A DNA stretch of 64,000 nucleotides from an uncultured virus (IMG/VR IMGVR_UViG_3300042564_004671) (Duplodnaviria > Heunggongvirae > Uroviricota > Caudoviricetes), in the IMG/VR virus record IMGVR_UViG_3300042564_004671; one strand, 5' to 3'. Positions 2 through 63,588 of this stretch are shown here, piece after piece. A program made the translations under genes and the position numbers. Numbering within the stretch: the stretch's first letter is position 1; the number at the start of each line of letters is the position of its first letter. The notes beneath the pieces are model-generated. The model saw only the letters and a program-made list of their open reading frames with translations, did no database searches and had not been told where the DNA came from.

Positions 2-211
2 ATGAAAACAGAAAAAGCAATCTCTACTGAACCAGTTAAGAGAACAAGAACTACAAGAGCTAAAGTAGTATCTCCTATTCAAACAGAAATGACTAAATTA
101 GAAACTGCTTTTATGGCAGCAATGACTGGTCAAATGAAATTCAAAGAAGTTAAATCTATCTTCCTTGAAATTCATAAAGAAATCAAAAAATCTGCAAAGT
201 CAAAAAATTAA
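2..211 (+). CDS. small basic hypothetical protein (5' context at window edge)
   Basis: 69-aa Lys/Thr-rich ORF, 9 nt upstream of the methylase. Confidence 0.6.
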   Translation: MKTEKAISTEPVKRTRTTRAKVVSPIQTEMTKLETAFMAAMTGQMKFKEVKSIFLEIHKEIKKSAKSKN

Positions 212-3241: not shown

Positions 3242-3430
3242 CTATATATTAAATATAGATTTGATTCTTTCTTTTCTTATTCTAACTCTTTCATATTTAG
3301 AGTGAAGACTATGCCATTCCATTAAAGAAGCATTAATACTTGACTTACCAGTTTGTCTAGACTTCAACATAATCATATTTTTACCACTAAGTAATTGGCC
3401 AAAGACATCAAGAGTTTCTTTATTATCCAT
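3242..3430 (-). CDS. small protein: terminase Walker-A-like fragment + RxxKI tag
   Basis: MLKSRQTGKSS, then RKERIKSIF; start set at MDNKE, overlapping the upstream stop. Confidence 0.65.
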   Translation of the reverse strand: MDNKETLDVFGQLLSGKNMIMLKSRQTGKSSINASLMEWHSLHSKYERVRIRKERIKSIFNI

Positions 3431-3605
3431 AAATTCTTTTAATTTTTTCTTTTCGTCTTTCAATTTTATCTCTATACTTACGAGAATTAGACATTATTGT
3501 ATAAATTTCTTTACTAAATTTTTCTAAAATATTATTTTGATATTTAGATTTACTCTGATTTATCATACCAATATGATCCAATACAATAATATCTCTTTTA
3601 ATCAT
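3423..3605 (-). CDS. small protein: DnaB/gp4 helicase Walker-B-like fragment + RxxKI tag
   Basis: DIIVLDHIGMI...KFSKEI, then RKEKIKRIY. Confidence 0.55.
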   Translation of the reverse strand: MIKRDIIVLDHIGMINQSKSKYQNNILEKFSKEIYTIMSNSRKYRDKIERRKEKIKRIYG

Positions 3606-4173: not shown

Positions 4174-4908
4174 TTAAATGTTTTTTAAATCATTTTTGAT
4201 TTTTTCCATACCGGTTGATGCCAATTCTTGGTAATGAGTAAATAAGTGTGTTCTATATTCTGGTATATAAAAATCAACATCTGATAAATCTACATAATAA
4301 ATAGAAGCACTTTCTTTGGTTAAGAATGGAATTGTGTTAGCAGGTGATACTTTCATTGAAGTTCCAACAACAATACAAACATCACATTCTTTAGCAGCAG
4401 TCGTAGCCATATCAACAAAATTTGGATCTAGATTTTCACCAAACCAAACAATATGAGGTCTTAATTGAGAACCAGTTGTTGGACATTTATCACCAATTTT
4501 AATTGGATTATATCCTATATCAATAACGGCATCTAATGGTGATGTTTTATGATCATACATACAACCTCTAGCCTTTGTTAACTCACCATGTAAGTGAATT
4601 ACATTAGTTGAACCAGATCTTTCGTGTAAATCATCGACATTTTGAGTCACAACGGTAACATCATAGTCTTTTTCTAATTCAGCAATTATTTTATGTGCCA
4701 AATTTGGTTCAACTTCATTCATTTGAGCACGTCTCATATTGTAGAAATTAAGAACTTTTTCTCTATCTCTACGCCACCCATCAGGGGTAGCAACATCTTC
4801 TATTCTGTGATTATACCAAAGCCCATCGTCTCCAGTTCTGAATGTAGCAACACCACTTTCAGCTGAAACTCCCGCTCCAGTAAAAATCAATACTTTTTTC
4901 TTTTCCAT
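4174..4908 (-). CDS. cobB: Sir2-family NAD-dependent deacylase
   Basis: TGAGVSAESGVATFR, PNLAH, TQNVDDLHERSG, HLHGEL, LRPHIVWFGE, VGTS. Confidence 0.95.
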   Translation of the reverse strand: MEKKKVLIFTGAGVSAESGVATFRTGDDGLWYNHRIEDVATPDGWRRDREKVLNFYNMRRAQMNEVEPNLAHKIIAELEKDYDVTVVTQNVDDLHERSGSTNVIHLHGELTKARGCMYDHKTSPLDAVIDIGYNPIKIGDKCPTTGSQLRPHIVWFGENLDPNFVDMATTAAKECDVCIVVGTSMKVSPANTIPFLTKESASIYYVDLSDVDFYIPEYRTHLFTHYQELASTGMEKIKNDLKNI

Positions 4909-12500: not shown

Positions 12501-12867
12501 AAATCTATCAATGAATTTTAGTGGGTACGTTGGATATACTGTTCAATCAACTTTTAATTATGTAATAGATAACATTAAATTTATAGAGATTGATATGATT
12601 CCCTTTTTCCAGTATTTCGTTGAATCAAATATTAATAAAGGTATACAAATTCCTTTTCAAGGAATATCACCTTATATAGATTATAGTAATCCATTCTTTA
12701 ATTTCTTAGATAATATATCACTTGGTGTTAGCAGTATTGCTGTATCAAATTCAAATGTTGCAGTTAGTGGAGTAGGTGTTGGTGTTTCAACAAATAATCC
12801 ACCAGCAAATAATCCAGCAGGTGGATTATTTGAGACCGGAATAGGAACTGAGGGTCGAGGTGATTAG
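9529..12867 (+). CDS. large putative virion structural protein with WxxGx repeats
   Basis: 1112 aa; FKSGVWENGVWNSGW, WLSGAFFNGYFRGVWNYG; TAATATATA at 9513-9521. Confidence 0.6.
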   Translation: MSWNTSVSGISSADWRLTTIGTGGPTPIRMRVNSQVSPSKLTTLTYVSSTNYQFKSGKTYQFVTDVYYYMNNLNPNSASFSISTPIETVSNFQWDESLDYNKFKGTSPSILGTGTSVGRFPGITNSNFYFYATPPSDISTKNIIEYNANNKFGTASNTETISAGITNFNLSEMDYRIQGFAFYKWGDAPYSRAGTSSTFTGAYPQNGLGWTYDANYNSGELLHWYDDSQVNLNPVGGGRTTKIGSVGYRQNNYIAKFVPYTYFNFSFNYQNQHGDFPLEIYLSSTLPTNNPGSFSKPTNALLIGTLTQSISVIAGVTYSSRSYSIPHKFFSLEGGRYIYFKGPFVGTQSSATYSSIFITDIVVEGGYHPGNNEQYQTSNVTSIIPYGLIGATYSTYVGNGNTINATQSLSISQINANIGNGTFKSGVWENGVWNSGWRYDDSVQEFSKIYQYFTYNKSKRWRIQIEGPSDAVNSFEIGDKVSIGNIIAIDINENRKTIKGYFTIIAKTDFTIIVEFDNDFPLRRIEKDSDNHRIYVTKNVWLSGAFFNGYFRGVWNYGLFRGYPMITEMYDTHWVDGIFDGGHFNTSYYTVPKFVDTLFYPNETFGGRVGLTFSSKHGLAVGDTILVDKDNKNINPQYDGETTIDNVINDYHIVTALPWGNDSTSEGGTVSVTLSKGVVQKMQFKSKNRSKITSNQSLESTSVFIYDSWMDVNYYNTSAVNIGKPQSLVNTLSGKDYSENNLYGYPTNDVLESSSTFRDSFSTTIREYSLGTKYKIFNNYIGDAGNFQEQFGSTRDYNPIGTPTESVERNSSDSKFINLGWTYSRYNASSLTFSRTFDLGEEGVIGQELLVRAIGRGGILDIYPLTDDEIIANRTNDTIKKLRYTAIEFDLVSHSELLEDGGTFIESSVPTLPILTKKSLFPTGSQGGYPIPMLHFNNINTTLRNIYYSTLGAGGGTVSTIIPASYLPISSNVNHLSTSKKRKIEYFYNKKNLSMNFSGYVGYTVQSTFNYVIDNIKFIEIDMIPFFQYFVESNINKGIQIPFQGISPYIDYSNPFFNFLDNISLGVSSIAVSNSNVAVSGVGVGVSTNNPPANNPAGGLFETGIGTEGRGD

Positions 12868-13577
12868 ATTTTATTCTTTTTCAATAAAAGGTAACCAACT
12901 TTACCAGGCTCTGTTTTTGAAACATTACCCATAGCAGGTATTTTTGTCTCATCACCTTCTAATTTGATTTTAGTTATTTTTTGTTTTCCTAAAATTCTTT
13001 TCTCACCATTACAACTCTTACAAGGATTCAAACCAACTTTACCTTTACCCATACAGAATGAGCAATCATATCCCATGTATTTACCACTACCATCACAGAA
13101 GTCACATCCATCATCACCATCAAAAGTTTTAAGTATATTACCATCAACATCTTTAATAACTATCTTAGAAGACATATCTTTACCAGTTCCGTCACAAGGT
13201 TTACATTTAACATACCTTTCATATTCTATATTACCATCAAATGAATCATCAATATTAATATAGATATCAAGTACTTCTGTTTTCTTAAAGTTGTCTAAAT
13301 GGTCTTTACTTTTATGATAATCAAACTCAACATTTATTTCAAAAAACTCAAAATACTCATTATAGTTATTTCCAAACTTACTTTTAACATCATAATCTTT
13401 TCTTTGTTCTCCGCAAAGTATATCATATGCTTCTGTCATTTCACCAAAAGTAACTGGATCCCCACCTTTATCCGGGTGGTGTGTAAATGAAAGTTTATAA
13501 TAAGCCTTTTTTATTATTTTTTCATCGGAATTATTATCAACTCCAAGAATTGAATAATAGTTTTTATTTAAATTCAT
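12864..13577 (-). CDS. dnaJ: DnaJ-family co-chaperone (J domain + Zn finger)
   Basis: NYYSILGV...IKKAYYKL...HHPDKGG; CKPCDGTG, CDFCDGSG, CSFCMGKG, CKSCNG. Confidence 0.9.
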   Translation of the reverse strand: MNLNKNYYSILGVDNNSDEKIIKKAYYKLSFTHHPDKGGDPVTFGEMTEAYDILCGEQRKDYDVKSKFGNNYNEYFEFFEINVEFDYHKSKDHLDNFKKTEVLDIYINIDDSFDGNIEYERYVKCKPCDGTGKDMSSKIVIKDVDGNILKTFDGDDGCDFCDGSGKYMGYDCSFCMGKGKVGLNPCKSCNGEKRILGKQKITKIKLEGDETKIPAMGNVSKTEPGKVGYLLLKKNKI

Positions 13578-20008: not shown

Positions 20009-20344
20009 TTAATATAGTTTACCTGTTTCTAAATAGTAGGTATTATTTGTAGTTATCATTTCAAATGTTTCGTGTATTGATTCACATTTTACCATAAATG
20101 ATTTTACATCTTCATCAGTTAAATCAAACCACTCACCATTTACTTTTTTAGTTTTAAATGTTCTATGTAGTTGTGATTCTATTTTTGTTCCCCATTTTGA
20201 CTTGAAAGAATTTATAACATATAGTTCAGAACCATTACCCGTCTTTAACTCTTTAATTCTTTTAGAGACTTCTCTTCTTGTATAACCTATTTTATACAAT
20301 CTTCTTCCTTCAAATTCAGCACATATTAAGTAAATATTAAACAT
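20009..20344 (-). CDS. GIY-YIG / T5orf172-family nuclease domain
   Basis: IYLI...YKIGYT...RIKELKTGN...IESQLHRTF...VNGEWFDL. Confidence 0.85.
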   Translation of the reverse strand: MFNIYLICAEFEGRRLYKIGYTRREVSKRIKELKTGNGSELYVINSFKSKWGTKIESQLHRTFKTKKVNGEWFDLTDEDVKSFMVKCESIHETFEMITTNNTYYLETGKLY

Positions 20345-20374: not shown

Positions 20375-20560
20375 TCACCAGATTTGTGGGAAGTTAGTTG
20401 GTCCTTTTGGAGTAGAAGTTATAATAACATTAGGAACATCTATTCCAAATATTTTACCTATTTTTATTTTTCTTAAATATCTTTTAGAATATTCAACACC
20501 TGATGTATCTTTTTCAATGAAGTGAATACCTGGTCTCACATATCTACCTATTCTGTTCAT
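20375..20560 (-). CDS. small protein: RxxKI tag + terminase coupling-motif fragment
   Basis: RKIKIGKIFG followed by VIITSTPKGPTNFPQIW; start set at MNRIG. Confidence 0.65.
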   Translation of the reverse strand: MNRIGRYVRPGIHFIEKDTSGVEYSKRYLRKIKIGKIFGIDVPNVIITSTPKGPTNFPQIW

Positions 20561-21041
20561 TTGATTTCTTCTTTTTACTTCTTCTTGTTTTCTTGTGAGT
20601 TTTAGATGATTCAGCTCCATATTTATAATCTAAATAGAATAAAGTACCTGATGGAGCAGACATTGGAGTTACTCCTTTTTTCATCAACTCTTTATATTCT
20701 TCATCATCTTCTAACTTCTTTTCAGTAAATTCACCACCTTCAATAACAGCTTCAATTTTACCATCACGATTTTCAGAATTTACTCTACTTTTTACATCAT
20801 CAATTTCTTCTTTTGATGCGAATCCTATTATTTCATTGGACATTAATTTTGATGATACTTTCATAGCCATTGGTAGTAAACTTGGAAACTCTTCAGTTTT
20901 AGTTTCTTCTAATATTTGATTTGATTGATTTTCGGCTAACTGAGCTAAATTGTCTAATTGAGATCCAGTCATACCCATAGACCCTAAGATAGGAGCCCAT
21001 TTTTTCATTAATTCTTCTTTATTTGGTTGTTTCATAAACAA
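20544..21041 (-). CDS. major-capsid (gp23) N-terminal fragment with inserted RxxKI tag
   Basis: KKWAPIL..ENQ..LLPMAMKV..[RDGKIEAVI]..VTPMSAPSGTLFYLDYKY. Confidence 0.7.
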   Translation of the reverse strand: MFMKQPNKEELMKKWAPILGSMGMTGSQLDNLAQLAENQSNQILEETKTEEFPSLLPMAMKVSSKLMSNEIIGFASKEEIDDVKSRVNSENRDGKIEAVIEGGEFTEKKLEDDEEYKELMKKGVTPMSAPSGTLFYLDYKYGAESSKTHKKTRRSKKKKSNEQNR

Positions 21042-45618: not shown

Positions 45619-45948
45619 TTAGTTTAATACCTGTTTTATTTTTTCGTCTCTTTGATAAGCTTTATAATCTTCTCCTTCCGTGATAAAATATTCTGACATT
45701 TCTTGTTCAGTAAAATAATACCACTTTATTCTCTCACTATATGGTAAATTCCACCAATCTTTTCTACCAGAATGATATCCATGTTGATCATCTTCAACAC
45801 AAAAACCATATCCTTTTCTACCATTAACTTCTGGATCAGCATTAAATTCTAAATTACCTCTTCCTTTGATATCATAATGACTACCAACTTTAATAGTTTT
45901 GTATTCTTTGACACAAACAACTCTTTGACAATCCCATCTATCTTCCAT
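45619..45948 (-). CDS. small protein with RxxKI tag
   Basis: ends RDEKIKQVLN. Confidence 0.6.
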   Translation of the reverse strand: MEDRWDCQRVVCVKEYKTIKVGSHYDIKGRGNLEFNADPEVNGRKGYGFCVEDDQHGYHSGRKDWWNLPYSERIKWYYFTEQEMSEYFITEGEDYKAYQRDEKIKQVLN

Positions 45949-46105
45949 CGAATAGTTTTTTAATTTTATATTTTCTAGCTTTTATAACATTAACTCTACA
46001 TCTTAACTTGGATAACTCTGAGTAAACATCAGTTACATTCATAGCACCGTAGCTCGAGTTCAAAATCATCTTGTAATAAGCTAATTTACTTTCTAATTCT
46101 CTCAT
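45938..46105 (-). CDS. unlisted 55-aa ORF: DNA polymerase B motif-B fragment + RxxKI tag
   Basis: MRELESKLAYYKMILNSSYGAMN...ARKYKIKKLFDGR; ATGA overlap with the upstream gene. Confidence 0.7.
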   Translation of the reverse strand: MRELESKLAYYKMILNSSYGAMNVTDVYSELSKLRCRVNVIKARKYKIKKLFDGR

Positions 46106-46707
46106 AAATCTCCGTGATGGTCAATTTTTTCCATAGTTCTCTTTGACATTATATTAGTAATATCACCTATGTTAAAAGGTCGATATTCACCAAACATTTT
46201 ATAAGCAACATCAACTCCAACGTCCATAGAACGACCAAAGTCTGGGATAGAACCGTGTGAGTGACCATAAAGATGTATAACACCTTTGTGACTACCTAAC
46301 CAAACTCGATGTGAGTAGTGAGAAAGGAATAGTTTTGTTTTACCAATATCTAAAGTTAAAACATCTTGAACTGATGAAAAAAGTTCAATTGGGTTAAATG
46401 ATGTATCGTGATATTTTATTTCTTTGTCTACTATGTGTTGGTCATGATTTCCTAAAATAAGATGTACATTTTTACAAACAATGTAGTTTCTAAATTGAAG
46501 TATGTTATGAACTCCACCGAAACTCCAATCACCTAAGTGATAAAGAATATCATCTTCTTTAACATATTTGTTGATACCATCAACAAGTGCCATATTCATT
46601 TCATGTACAGAGTTAAAATCTCTATATCCTGAAGACCAGTTCGATATTTTGGGACCAGCTATGTTAGTGTGTCCAAAGTGTGTGTCTGATGTAAACCATA
46701 TATTCAT
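46102..46707 (-). CDS. calcineurin-like metallophosphoesterase
   Basis: TSDTHFGH, HLGD, GNHD, SHY, GHSH, DVGVD. Confidence 0.92.
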   Translation of the reverse strand: MNIWFTSDTHFGHTNIAGPKISNWSSGYRDFNSVHEMNMALVDGINKYVKEDDILYHLGDWSFGGVHNILQFRNYIVCKNVHLILGNHDQHIVDKEIKYHDTSFNPIELFSSVQDVLTLDIGKTKLFLSHYSHRVWLGSHKGVIHLYGHSHGSIPDFGRSMDVGVDVAYKMFGEYRPFNIGDITNIMSKRTMEKIDHHGDL

Positions 46708-56092: not shown

Positions 56093-58084
56093 TTAACTTT
56101 CATATTGTTTAATCTTATCTTCAAGATATTCAATTGTTTTCTTTTTAATTTCAGGTGATGTTTTTCTACTATGACTTAACCAAGTTAAAGCTGCTTTGAA
56201 TCCACCTTTAACACCTTTTTCTATCATTATATCAATGAAATCTAATCTACCATACTCTGCTGCCCATTTAACTGGCATGTTTCTACCAGAATCATCTGCT
56301 AATTTAGCACCATACTTAACAAGTAATTGGAATACATCTAAGTATCCTTCTCCAATATCATCAATATTTTTCCAACCACCTCTACAACATCTTCTTATTG
56401 GAAGTGAGTTGTCAAAGTTAGGATTTAATCCTTGTTTCAAACAATATTCAACAGCATTAACATCATTACAAATATTATTAAATACTTCTCCTGTTAATTC
56501 AGAACCATTAGATACCAATAATTTAATCATATCTAAGTCTTGAGCTTTATTAACAATAGCGTCTGCTTTACTTCTTAAGTTTGGAGAACCACCTAATTCT
56601 AAAATAACTTTAGCTTTCTCGTGATTGTTTTCTTCAACAGCATGTAAGAGAGCTACACAATTATCTTTATTGATATTAGCGCCATCTTCTTTAACATATT
56701 GTTTAATCTTTTCAATTGAAAGTCCTTTCTTAACTATTTCTCTTTCAGCAAGTTTTGCTCTTTCTCTTCTAGTGATTTCTTCTTGAGTCATTGGTTTAAG
56801 CTGAGCAAAAAGATCTTCCTTAATATCATATTCACCTTCCCATTTTTTAAGAAGATTTTTAATTGAACTAAGAATATTAGCGTCGTCTTTAGCATGAGCC
56901 GCTCTTACTGATTGACCTGGTTGAATAGTAATACCAATAGTAGATAAGTTATCATATTGAGGAATATTAAAGTTATAAATATAATATTGTTTGTTATTAT
57001 GGTTACCAACATAGTTTTCCCACTGAGAAGAATAATCTTTAATACAATGTCGTGTATGACCATTTAACATCTGATTAGCTTGAAAAGACTTAACTTCAAT
57101 AATTAAGATACCATTATCTTCAAATACGGTATCAGAACCTAAGTAACCATACTTCTCATTACAAGCATTAATCTTATCATAAAAAGCAATAATTGAATCA
57201 TTTTCTGATGATTTCAAGTAGTTCTGAGCCGCTTTGATAAACTCTCTAATATTTTTATATCTGAAAAGAGGTCCGAAATATCTTTTATCACCTTTCTTAT
57301 AAGCTTTACCATGAATAACTTGGTCAGCATCAATTATTCTAACCTCACCAAAGAATGATTTCCATAGTCTTTCTTTTTTAACTTCATCTTTACCACCTAA
57401 TTGATCAAATCCTCTACAAACTTCAGCAAATTGGTCTTTAATAACTTCTGGTGAATCCATATAATCTTTTTTCAACACCGGAGTTAATTTATCAATTACT
57501 TTTTTAATTTTTTTATAATCCTCTAAACTATCTAATCCATCAATAAGTGCCTCTGCATTATTTGGAATATTTGGATCGATAAAATTAGCATCAAACTTTT
57601 TAGGAAGTCTATCAAGTAATCCAGAATATTCAACAAGTTTAGATAGAATGTTATTAGGTGCTTCAATTTCTTTACCATCAACTTCAATTTTCTCTACTCT
57701 TGTAAATAACTCTTCCATTGAAACCATCTCAACAAAAAAGAAATAAGTAAATGGATAAGTCCACCCTATGTGTTTTTGACCTAAATACTCTCTAATCTTT
57801 AAGAAGTCTGGATTTCTCTCAATATTTCTTACTTCTTCATCTTTTAGTCTAAGTTCTCTTAACTTTAATTTGATCTCACTTTGTTGTTCTGGAGTAAAGT
57901 CACCTAAAGTCAAACATCTTTTTTCTTTATGATCCAACTGAGCTTTTAACTCACCTTCAACAAATCCAAGGTTAGTAGCAGCAGTAGTTAACAAATAAGT
58001 ATCTTTCAAGAATTTTTTAGCCTTATCAAGATTTTCGTTTAATGGTTTCTCACCTAAAAATTGATTATATTTAAATAGTTTCAT
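56093..58084 (-). CDS. ankyrin-repeat protein with capsid-targeting-like leader
   Basis: MKLFKYNQFLGEKPLNE; GANIN..ALLHAVE, LLVSNGS, WAAEYGRLD. Confidence 0.75.
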   Translation of the reverse strand: MKLFKYNQFLGEKPLNENLDKAKKFLKDTYLLTTAATNLGFVEGELKAQLDHKEKRCLTLGDFTPEQQSEIKLKLRELRLKDEEVRNIERNPDFLKIREYLGQKHIGWTYPFTYFFFVEMVSMEELFTRVEKIEVDGKEIEAPNNILSKLVEYSGLLDRLPKKFDANFIDPNIPNNAEALIDGLDSLEDYKKIKKVIDKLTPVLKKDYMDSPEVIKDQFAEVCRGFDQLGGKDEVKKERLWKSFFGEVRIIDADQVIHGKAYKKGDKRYFGPLFRYKNIREFIKAAQNYLKSSENDSIIAFYDKINACNEKYGYLGSDTVFEDNGILIIEVKSFQANQMLNGHTRHCIKDYSSQWENYVGNHNNKQYYIYNFNIPQYDNLSTIGITIQPGQSVRAAHAKDDANILSSIKNLLKKWEGEYDIKEDLFAQLKPMTQEEITRRERAKLAEREIVKKGLSIEKIKQYVKEDGANINKDNCVALLHAVEENNHEKAKVILELGGSPNLRSKADAIVNKAQDLDMIKLLVSNGSELTGEVFNNICNDVNAVEYCLKQGLNPNFDNSLPIRRCCRGGWKNIDDIGEGYLDVFQLLVKYGAKLADDSGRNMPVKWAAEYGRLDFIDIMIEKGVKGGFKAALTWLSHSRKTSPEIKKKTIEYLEDKIKQYES

Positions 58085-61610: not shown

Positions 61611-62177
61611 ATGAAAAGATTTTCAGATATTAAAAAAGTAAAAGTTAAAAAAATCAACGAAGCCGAAGGTGAATCAAATTTACCTTCAAACTACGAAGAT
61701 ATGTCAAAAGAAGAACTTTTAGCTCTTATGTCAGGTAAAAAAGAACAACCTGAACCAGAAAAGAAAGAAGAAGAAAAGAAAGAAGTATCTAACGAAGGTG
61801 GTGATGTTTCTAAATTCATCTCTAAATTGTTAGAAAGTAGAGAGATGGCTCAAGTTTATCACTGGACGGTTAAAGGTGATATGGGTTCACACGCAGCTCA
61901 CTTAGCATTAGAAGCTTACTACAGTGGTGTTATTGAATTTATTGATGATATCGTTGAGGTTTATCAAGGTCAATATGGTTTAATTGAAGGATATGATCAA
62001 ATTGCTACAGATGAAACAAGATCTAAAGATAAATTGGATTACTTCAAAGAAGTTGTTGAATTTGTTAAATCAGAAAGAAGTTGCATTAAAGTAGAAGATA
62101 CACACTTACATACTATAATAGATGAGGTTGTAGTTCTTATTTACAAAACAATCTACAAATTAACTTACAATAAATAA
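61611..62177 (+). CDS. ferritin/Dps-like four-helix protein with leader
   Basis: QVYHW...HAAHLALEAYY...DDIVEVYQGQYG...IIDE; TAATATATA at 61579-61587. Confidence 0.65.
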   Translation: MKRFSDIKKVKVKKINEAEGESNLPSNYEDMSKEELLALMSGKKEQPEPEKKEEEKKEVSNEGGDVSKFISKLLESREMAQVYHWTVKGDMGSHAAHLALEAYYSGVIEFIDDIVEVYQGQYGLIEGYDQIATDETRSKDKLDYFKEVVEFVKSERSCIKVEDTHLHTIIDEVVVLIYKTIYKLTYNK

Positions 62178-62178
62178 A

Positions 62179-62727
62179 ATGAAACACATTAAAAAACATC
62201 CTATTAATGATAAAGCTCAGAAGCTTTCAAAGGATATAAAAAAACAAGATCATAGTAAACCAGCATCAAAAAAGAAATTAGACGCTGATAAATCTTTAAG
62301 TGATCCTGAGGTTTCAATGAAGGTAACTAAACCATCAAATAAAAAATTAAATGGTGAAAAGTTTTTATCTAACCCTACAATCAATACTAAAAAGCCTAAT
62401 AAACCTTCTAATAAAAATTTAGATGGTGAGAAGTTCTTAGCAGAAGGACTTAATCATTTAAAAAGATTCAATGAAGAATTCGATTCAAGTGGATATCAAT
62501 CACACTGGACTAAATTTGCTCAATGGTTATGGGAAAAAGACTTTGAATTATATGGTGGTGGAGAAGACCTTCACAATAAATTTATGGAAGTATCTAATGA
62601 TGATAACTTATCATCAGAAGATAAAGCTAGTCAAATTACAAATTATTTAGATGAAAAATGGGGAGTCTATGATGGATATATGTCAGTATATAATTATTTA
62701 GAATCTTTATTCATGGATGAAATTTAA
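62179..62727 (+). CDS. basic repeat domain + internal leader + acidic domain
   Basis: KPSNKKLNGEKFL-type repeat x3; internal LNHLKRFNEE. Confidence 0.6.
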   Translation: MKHIKKHPINDKAQKLSKDIKKQDHSKPASKKKLDADKSLSDPEVSMKVTKPSNKKLNGEKFLSNPTINTKKPNKPSNKNLDGEKFLAEGLNHLKRFNEEFDSSGYQSHWTKFAQWLWEKDFELYGGGEDLHNKFMEVSNDDNLSSEDKASQITNYLDEKWGVYDGYMSVYNYLESLFMDEI

Positions 62728-62729
62728 CT

Positions 62730-62758
62730 AAAATCCCACTTAATAAGTGGGATTTTTT
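62730..62758. terminator. bidirectional intrinsic terminator
   Basis: aaaatcccactta-a-taagtgggatttt. Confidence 0.75.
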
Positions 62759-62997
62759 ATTTCTATAGTTCCGTAAAAGTTATTATTTATAATCTTTTTA
62801 GAGTATCTACTCATAATTGATTTACTTGGTGAGAATTCATCTTTAACATCTAAACCTAAACCAAATATCTTATTAATCTTTCTTTTTCTACTTACATTCT
62901 TAGAAGTATATCCAGATATAACAGAAGTGGTTGTCAATGGAATATAAGGAGCAAAAACATAACCTTGTTCTAAATTACTTTTCTTTCCTATTATCAT
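62740..62997 (-). CDS. major-capsid (gp23) C-terminal fragment with inserted RxxKI tag
   Basis: QGYVFAPYIPL..[RKRKINKIFG]..FSPSKSIMSRYSKKIINNNFYG. Confidence 0.7.
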   Translation of the reverse strand: MIIGKKSNLEQGYVFAPYIPLTTTSVISGYTSKNVSRKRKINKIFGLGLDVKDEFSPSKSIMSRYSKKIINNNFYGTIEIKNPTY

Positions 62998-63133
62998 TGA
63001 ATATTTTTTTAATTTTTTCTTTTCTTTTATCTTTTCTAAGAAAAGAACTTAAAAAGTTCATAGAAGAATAGTCATGTAATCTACTTCCAGGTCCACCTAG
63101 TACAACATTCCACTCATCTCTCGCTTTTATCAT
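62975..63133 (-). CDS. unlisted 52-aa ORF with RxxKI tag
   Basis: MIKARDEWNVVLGGPGSRLHDY...RKEKIKKIFND. Confidence 0.55.
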   Translation of the reverse strand: MIKARDEWNVVLGGPGSRLHDYSSMNFLSSFLRKDKRKEKIKKIFNDNRKEK

Positions 63134-63248
63134 ATAATCTTTTGATTTTATTTTTTCTCTTTTCAGATCTTTCTTTTTTAGACCATCTGAAAATTGAATC
63201 TGTTATAGACTCTTGAAACTCTTTTGATTGATTTTCCCAAATTGACAT
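63114..63248 (-). CDS. unlisted 44-aa ORF with RxxKI tag
   Basis: MSIWENQSKEF...KRKNKIKRLYD. Confidence 0.55.
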   Translation of the reverse strand: MSIWENQSKEFQESITDSIFRWSKKERSEKRKNKIKRLYDKSER

Positions 63249-63270: not shown

Positions 63271-63588
63271 CTACTTGTTTTCTGTGTACATATACTTTCT
63301 ACCAGTATCATTATAATCCATTAGATTATTAACAACGGTATCAATCTTATCTTTAGAATCATCAACATCTTTTTTGATAACTTGAAGCGCAGCAATTGAA
63401 TCATCTATCTGATCATTTCCTTTTTTAGAATCACTTTTGAAATTATTTAATTCATTTAGTAATGATTCTACTGATTTTGATTTATCATCCATGATAGAAG
63501 CAAAGTCTTTTAACTCCTCAATAATTTCTGCTACTCTTTCTGATGAAATATCTACTTGTTCATCTTCATTGAATCTTCTAATTTTCAT
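63271..63588 (-). CDS. coiled-coil protein with leader
   Basis: MKIRRFNE; heptad pattern. Confidence 0.6.
   Translation of the reverse strand: MKIRRFNEDEQVDISSERVAEIIEELKDFASIMDDKSKSVESLLNELNNFKSDSKKGNDQIDDSIAALQVIKKDVDDSKDKIDTVVNNLMDYNDTGRKYMYTENK

Follow-up and report, generated by a model that had tools for sequence, protein, structure and literature searches.

The window that we analyzed, a 64,000-nucleotide stretch covering bases 79–64078 of a 175,660-base linear virus record, is AT-rich (25–32% GC) and carries on its minus strand an 85-codon gene, hereafter F62, preceded by two short frames (micro-ORFs 2 and 3) and, upstream of these, by an untagged, conserved gene (Table 1). A preliminary description of this DNA had read F62 as a mimic of the C terminus of the T4-type capsid protein gp23, interrupted by an internal tag and placed at the end of a unit of three tagged ORFs. 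The frame is indeed present, begins with ATG and encodes the peptides quoted there, and the two additional frames exist as well, each ending in the motif that F62 carries internally. The micro-ORFs overlap their neighbors (by 23 nt for micro-ORF 2 and 20 nt for micro-ORF 3), and a terminator-like hairpin separates F62 from the convergent gene; from the overlaps and the hairpin we infer that the three tagged ORFs form one operon, and the 105-aa gene is probably part of the same transcription unit. The hairpin stem includes the stop codon and last codons (NPTY) of F62, such that the conserved C-terminal NPT(Y/L) is encoded by a stem shared with the convergent gene, and because these codons form the stem, conservation of NPT(Y/L) may partly reflect selection at the RNA level. 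A scan for sigma-70-like promoters found no excess (15, versus 13.5 in shuffled sequences). RNA-library contigs from four metatranscriptome libraries (four studies) cover F62 with 85–99% likeness, a weak hint that it is transcribed, as such libraries may hold DNA. Neither F62 nor the micro-ORFs had a match in PHROGs below an E value of 0.1.

Table 1. Features of the F62 locus and of related frames elsewhere in the window (window coordinates; parts of F62 are given by residue).
Feature	Position	Strand	Description
F62	62740..62997	-	85-aa mini-protein, ATG start
F62 piece A	residues ~4-32		gp23 C-terminal hairpin
F62 tag	residues ~33-54		inserted basic helix, core RKRKINKIF at 37-45
F62 piece B	residues ~55-80		last strand of gp23
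Codons of F62 tag core	62860..62886	-	RKRKINKIF
Micro-ORF 2	62975..63133	-	52 aa, tag RKEKIKKIF at end
Micro-ORF 3	63114..63248	-	44 aa, tag RKNKIKRLY at end
Upstream gene	63271..63588	-	105 aa, untagged, conserved; directly upstream of the micro-ORFs
Hairpin	62730..62756	.	terminator-like, two-way, 12 pairs; between F62 and convergent gene 62179..62727
Tagged frame	45941..46120	-	60 aa; sole K...NS.YG of the record, kept in three relatives (weak)
Tagged frame	3426..3605	-	60 aa; Walker-B-like cargo, by eye
Tagged frame	3245..3493	-	83 aa; cargo aligns to large terminase Walker A region (weak)
Tagged ORF	20378..20629	-	internal tag RKIKIGKIF; adjoins the N-terminal mimic
N-terminal mimic	20544..21041	-	165 aa, untagged; residues 123-155 match Gp23 profile 26-58

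The record is that of a T4-type phage, with a complete gene at genome positions 116031–117782 for a Gp23 capsid protein of full length (583 aa; 99 bits) and with genes for a T4-type large terminase, a DnaB-type helicase, ribonucleotide reductase, the head maturation protease and the tail sheath. Two uncultured phages, LR745206.1 (634 kb) and LR756502.1 (642 kb), are 67–73% identical to parts of its DNA, and 15 lake-water DNA runs contain the window nearly complete. The neighborhood of F62 itself consists of small accessory genes; the capsid, protease and related head genes are 54 kb away. The accessory set is an unusual one for a phage: Sir2, DnaJ-type J-domain and ankyrin-repeat genes lie in the window (4174–4908, 12864–13577 and 56093–58084, respectively), and a ClpS adaptor homolog and a Ro60/TROVE protein are encoded outside it (genome 136900–137181 and 73458–74906). 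Two genes away from F62 is a gene (window 61611–62177, plus strand) matching DUF5856 and the PHROG 'starvation-inducible transcriptional regulator' (Dps-like).

Several comparisons linked F62 to the capsid protein. The Pfam Gp23 profile (PF07068) matched it at positions 306–354 of 376 with an E value of 6.5e-4, its 19.7 bits lying under the curated cut-off of 24.4 bits. A tblastn search of 2.3 Gb of phage records returned 13 records, with every match covering at least 85% of the query; 11 of the 13 matches fell under annotated capsid or major-head genes, and in LR756508.1, one of the two unannotated records, the matched region proved on checking to be a full-length capsid gene's 3′ end. Microcystis phage Mel-JY01 gave the best match (2e-6). 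When a profile of 79 family members (a shallow alignment, Neff 1.6) was aligned with hhalign to a profile of eight full-length gp23-type proteins, the probability was 99.1% (E 7.9e-19, 63 columns), and the region matched corresponded to residues 514–579 of the phage's own 583-aa capsid protein; seven of these eight proteins had been chosen from F62-profile hits, which makes the comparison not fully independent, and the phage's own protein, which headed the set, had not been chosen in this way. Left unaligned was a block of 22 F62 columns (residues about 33–54) containing RKRKINKIF. In the Atlas, 29 of the 30 nearest clusters have a common set of Pfam families that includes Gp23, and two of these are 78–82 aa long. 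By profile–profile comparison, homology of F62 to the last ~65 residues of gp23-type capsid proteins is secure, and the earlier proposals that F62 holds C-terminal gp23 motifs, that a profile comparison would recover them and that a tag replaces the intervening loop were all borne out, the insertion being the part that carries the motif.

F62 nevertheless differs from a gp23-type protein in several respects. Pieces A and B account for its homology to the last ~65 residues of that family, and it does not have the full HK97-type chain with its N-arm, E-loop, and P and A domains; F62 is only 85 aa, carries the 22-residue basic insertion, is predicted to be disordered alone, and coexists with a normal 583-aa capsid gene, and it cannot form a shell. 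An AlphaFold2 model of F62 from the 79-sequence alignment had a mean pLDDT of 59, with a helix at residues 35–45, corresponding to the tag, as the sole confident element, and was judged too poor for a fold search; a sequence search of the PDB with the family profile yielded one chance-level match only (E 0.76). By eye, the start of micro-ORF 2 resembles the gp23 strand just ahead of piece A, but neither this frame nor micro-ORF 3 had a significant BLAST match among three capsid proteins. A complex prediction for F62 with micro-ORF 2, run without controls, scored 0.00 and counts neither for nor against contact. F62 shared 28–35 identities over 53–63 aligned columns with the capsid proteins of seven other phages, as opposed to just 18 of 43 with the resident capsid protein, and by this measure it is closer to mainstream gp23 than to the capsid protein of its own phage.

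The frame was open in all 11 related IMG/VR loci (82–90 codons, on contigs of 89–476 kb). A word-indexed search returned 356 clusters at 90% identity, the best 120 of which were 82–107 aa long and 74–96% identical, and an exhaustive search of 50%-identity representatives returned 387 clusters at E ≤ 0.001; among the best 150 of these 387, 139 were shorter than 150 aa, three were 230–241 aa and eight were 314–662 aa. Nei–Gojobori dN/dS ratios of F62 ranged from 0.18 to 0.83 over 55 pairs. For the six genomes that contain the upstream 105-aa gene, the median was 0.38 for F62 versus 0.08 for that gene, which is under strong purifying selection. Constraint on F62 is real, yet loose outside the motifs. 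Summed over pairs, the tag core accumulated 18 nonsynonymous and 43 synonymous differences, versus 1988 and 922, respectively, for F62 outside the core; the tag is the most constrained part of the protein, and is so at the peptide level. F62 is demonstrably a real, selected mini-gene and not debris. The unit of three tagged ORFs fared less well than F62 itself: all three ORFs are present here, but relatives have zero, one or two tagged micro-ORFs upstream of F62, and the stable element is F62, not the three-gene unit.

The tag has the consensus R-K-x-K-I-x-K-I/L-F/Y. Its strict pattern, R[KR].[KS]I.[KRNS][ILV][FY], occurred nine times in the record, always on the minus strand, versus a mean of 0.3 in 20 first-order random genomes, and eight times in a 385-kb relative (G002) versus not once in eight random genomes. 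With a scoring matrix built from 17 instances, 12 matches in the record (ten of them at 17.8 or above) and 14 in G002 (twelve at 18 or above) scored at least 14, a score that no match reached in the reversed-sequence controls. All of the ten and twelve top matches lay in frames of 35–102 aa (a weaker match, scoring 16.3, fell in a 762-aa frame), and in each the tag was no more than seven residues from the C terminus, with the exceptions of F62 and ORF 20378–20629. The F62 core, in a frame of under ~100 aa, scored 30.4 and is internal, 40 residues from the end, although the handle is C-terminal in the LR745206.1 homolog of F62 and in three representative clusters. Paralogous tags differ in the codons by which they encode Arg, Ile, Leu and Phe, and their flanks are unrelated, which argues that the tag is kept as a peptide; on these grounds we rejected a DNA-level element such as a promoter, a translation-initiation region or the end of a mobile element. 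The basic helix is a portable handle that ends, or lies inside, about ten mini-proteins of this phage, each of them with a single strongly conserved stretch of some T4-type core protein as its cargo. Possible resemblances of the handle are to a degron, a chaperone-binding site, a clamp-binding (PIP-like) box or a membrane-targeting amphipathic helix. With about ten tagged mini-ORFs and cargo beyond the capsid protein, the picture is wider than the one first drawn.

The family also proved to be modular. In the F62 homolog of LR745206.1, which another tagged ORF precedes, pieces A and B are contiguous and the tag is C-terminal. Sorting the 139 small representatives by regular expression gave 19 with the order A-tag-B, 35 with A-B (some with the native short loop behind unrelated leaders, others with a long insert), 17 with B before A, and three with A-B-tag; the B-before-A clusters are, as judged from the order of their motifs, circular permutations. 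Two representatives (P0133 and P0153) have piece-tag-A-tag-B within one frame, and two others (P0218 and P0224) fuse a gp23 N-terminal motif with A-B, in either order. In two loci (L009 and L015) the tail of the second micro-ORF seems to have been joined, at the tag, onto the first, and micro-ORF 2 is missing from one contig of an RNA library. Recombination at the tag-coding repeats would explain these fissions, fusions, deletions and permutations. Because A and B stay together through permutation, what selection keeps seems to be either a small unit resembling a sheet or a binding surface in two parts.

As for what the other tagged mini-ORFs carry, cargo from the capsid protein is clear. In addition to F62 with its gp23 C terminus, one tagged ORF (genome 102991–103206) matched Gp23 at 40.2 bits (profile 131–185) and two in G002 matched it at 34.8 and 29.1 bits, which places three tagged pieces above the Pfam cut-off; another tagged ORF of G002 matched profile positions 222–259 with an E value of 0.013. 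Non-capsid cargo was indicated more weakly, by a match below the cut-off between a tagged ORF of G002 and the C-terminal part of Portal_T4 (E 0.004), by matches to the head maturation protease (residues 133–164, E 3.6e-4; residues 22–57, E 0.08–0.19; against a database of 313 large frames), to the tail sheath N terminus (E 0.001–0.002) and to the large terminase around Walker A (E 0.17–0.49), and by a K...NS.YG, which we take to be motif B of family-B polymerases, in one tagged frame (from a scan of 184,125 six-frame residues). These matches are weak, with positions at the expected signature sites, and the assignment of non-capsid cargo depends on weak E values and on motif resemblance. Three overlapping tagged ORFs with capsid, head-protease and portal pieces stand in a row in G002 (342285–342811, minus strand; L055).

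The N-terminal gp23 partner fragment that had been placed 42 kb from F62 is likewise present, as an untagged ORF (Gp23, E 9.4e-4; PHROG major head protein, 1e-5). The tagged ORF adjoining it seems to join sheath and terminase pieces around its internal tag, to judge from weak matches of the part before the tag to the tail-sheath N terminus and of the part after it to a large-terminase motif, a layout that parallels the A-tag-B of F62. Directly downstream of both is a T5orf172/MUG113 (GIY-YIG-like) gene (window 20009–20344, minus strand), which may be a homing endonuclease. Elsewhere in the genome, two untagged proteins of 258–261 aa (110233–111006, minus strand, and 100190–100972, plus strand) match Gp23 profile positions 174–305 and may be partial capsid paralogs; they are nearer the resident capsid protein than are the tagged pieces (E 1.6e-8 and 6.6e-7 in a BLAST database of three proteins).

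The polymerase itself is also split. The record's family-B DNA polymerase gene encodes a 510-aa N-terminal part (genome 85318–86847, minus strand) that stops just before motif B, at the same point as in three relatives (L031–L033), and LR745206.1 has a 476-aa C-terminal part with motifs B and C, 100 kb away (L028/L029). Pfam, protein, pattern and phmmer searches found no C-terminal half in this record or the three relatives (84–97% complete), four records that may be incomplete. LR745206.1 has the C-terminal half and lacks the tagged motif-B piece, whereas the four other records, in which the searches recovered no such half, carry that piece.

Our tentative reading, to which we give a little under an even chance, is that F62 is a motif-display mini-protein of a modular family that acts by mimicry through a common handle. 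F62 alone would be largely unfolded; its capsid-derived strands would occupy a site that normally recognizes a conserved surface of gp23-type proteins, and the shared basic handle would provide a common second contact. Two targets would be the most likely: a host sensor that detects conserved phage proteins, or the process by which rival T4-type phages fold or assemble their proteins. The phage's own shell is probably not the target, given that these very motifs are where the resident capsid protein has diverged. According to a recent preprint (PMC12803255), the capsid and other conserved phage proteins are sensed by many bacterial STAND receptors, which makes a host sensor a reasonable target. 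The pieces displayed overlap the targets reported there only in part, with the capsid as the clear case.

An extension of this reading, possible but doubtful, is that the tagged mini-genes constitute a library of decoy epitopes, each presenting one invariant segment (of capsid, portal, protease, terminase, sheath or polymerase) on a common basic helix, that would dull the host receptors for these proteins or disrupt folding and assembly of rival T4-type phages during co-infection, with the phage's own proteins having drifted from the consensus. A mimic of an immune trigger is expected to trigger rather than to block, and the decoy idea therefore takes an extra assumption. Avs/STAND receptors, moreover, are reported to read whole folds by their shape, and the portion of PMC12803255 on which we draw describes no phage-encoded fragment decoy; a Walker A loop, or any similarly short linear piece, is unlikely to imitate folds read in this way. 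The median dN/dS of F62 (0.38), well above that of its neighbor (0.08), also counts against mimicry as proposed. Full-text searches of the main texts of the literature yielded no description of such tagged mini-genes.

An alternative that we consider unlikely is that the mini-proteins serve the phage's own virion or its assembly, with the handle as an address (to the procapsid core, a membrane or DNA) and the mini-proteins either packaged or regulating assembly of the phage's own head. Capsid, portal, protease and terminase, all of them proteins of the head or of packaging, do supply much of the identified cargo, and a basic helix that is nearly always C-terminal is reminiscent of a sorting signal. 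However, the cargo is more like foreign capsid proteins than like the resident one, polymerase and sheath pieces are unsuited to a head address, and F62 resides with accessory genes far from the head genes. This likeness to foreign capsids, the mixed cargo and the accessory-gene position lead us to favor mimicry of mainstream gp23 over service to the phage's own shell.

Chance is a further alternative, and quite an unlikely one: foreign or duplicated T4-type genes might have been shuffled at a repeated tag cassette and the neutral or selfish remains kept by chance or hitch-hiking. The relaxed dN/dS of F62 relative to the neighboring gene would fit such an origin, as would the varying number of upstream micro-ORFs, the resemblance of L009 and L015 to deletions between two tag repeats (together with the RNA-library contig that skips micro-ORF 2), and the T5orf172/MUG113 gene adjoining the N-terminal fragment. 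What counts against this explanation is that the frame is preserved in all 11 loci and across hundreds of clusters, together with strong peptide-level constraint on the tag, retention of both pieces in the permuted forms, and DNA conservation that stops at the tag.

We also considered whether these are pieces of a gene, a second capsid-type protein (or other split genes) that reassembles non-covalently with the tags as assembly handles. The gp23 profile is tiled by pieces at positions 26–58, 131–185, 222–259 (in G002) and 306–354, fused forms occur, and four records with the tagged motif-B piece yielded no C-terminal half for the family-B polymerase, which in this clade stops just short of motif B. 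Yet much of the fold is absent, adjacent pieces overlap in gp23 coordinates, one ORF combines sheath with terminase pieces, permutations occur, a complete capsid gene is present, and the four polymerase records may simply be incomplete; we find reassembly very unlikely.

The motifs in the cargo are of the kind that homing elements target, and some untagged representatives resemble second exons with unrelated leaders, but that the pieces are exon remnants or flanks carried by introns, inteins or homing endonucleases, with the tag as read-through into the element, is highly improbable given that Pfam searches (E up to 1) detected no intein or endonuclease domain in or beside the F62 unit, that the overlapping ORFs leave an element no room, and that the tag is conserved as peptide and not as DNA. 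Conserved phage-type genes are known to occur in separate pieces in environmental DNA, as metagenomic 'fractured genes' with split inteins (PMC2677866), and F62 is like them in this respect. Unlike the fractured genes described there, the F62-type pieces are very small, overlap one another, occur in permuted order and mix segments of different proteins, and F62, the micro-ORFs and their neighbors had no intein or homing-endonuclease domain in the same Pfam searches.

If mimicry of mainstream gp23 is the correct reading, a virus that turns pieces of the most conserved viral proteins against host sensing or against rival phages would be new, and the handle that the mini-proteins share would suggest a single partner common to them all. 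With 387 clusters at 50% identity the family is large, and it has no name; many small huge-phage genes now annotated as 'hypothetical' could then be interpreted. Its permuted and fused members are in effect a natural experiment in minimal beta-sheet units derived from the HK97-type fold. Finally, metagenome surveys based on counts of gp23 hits can mistake such fragments for capsid markers.
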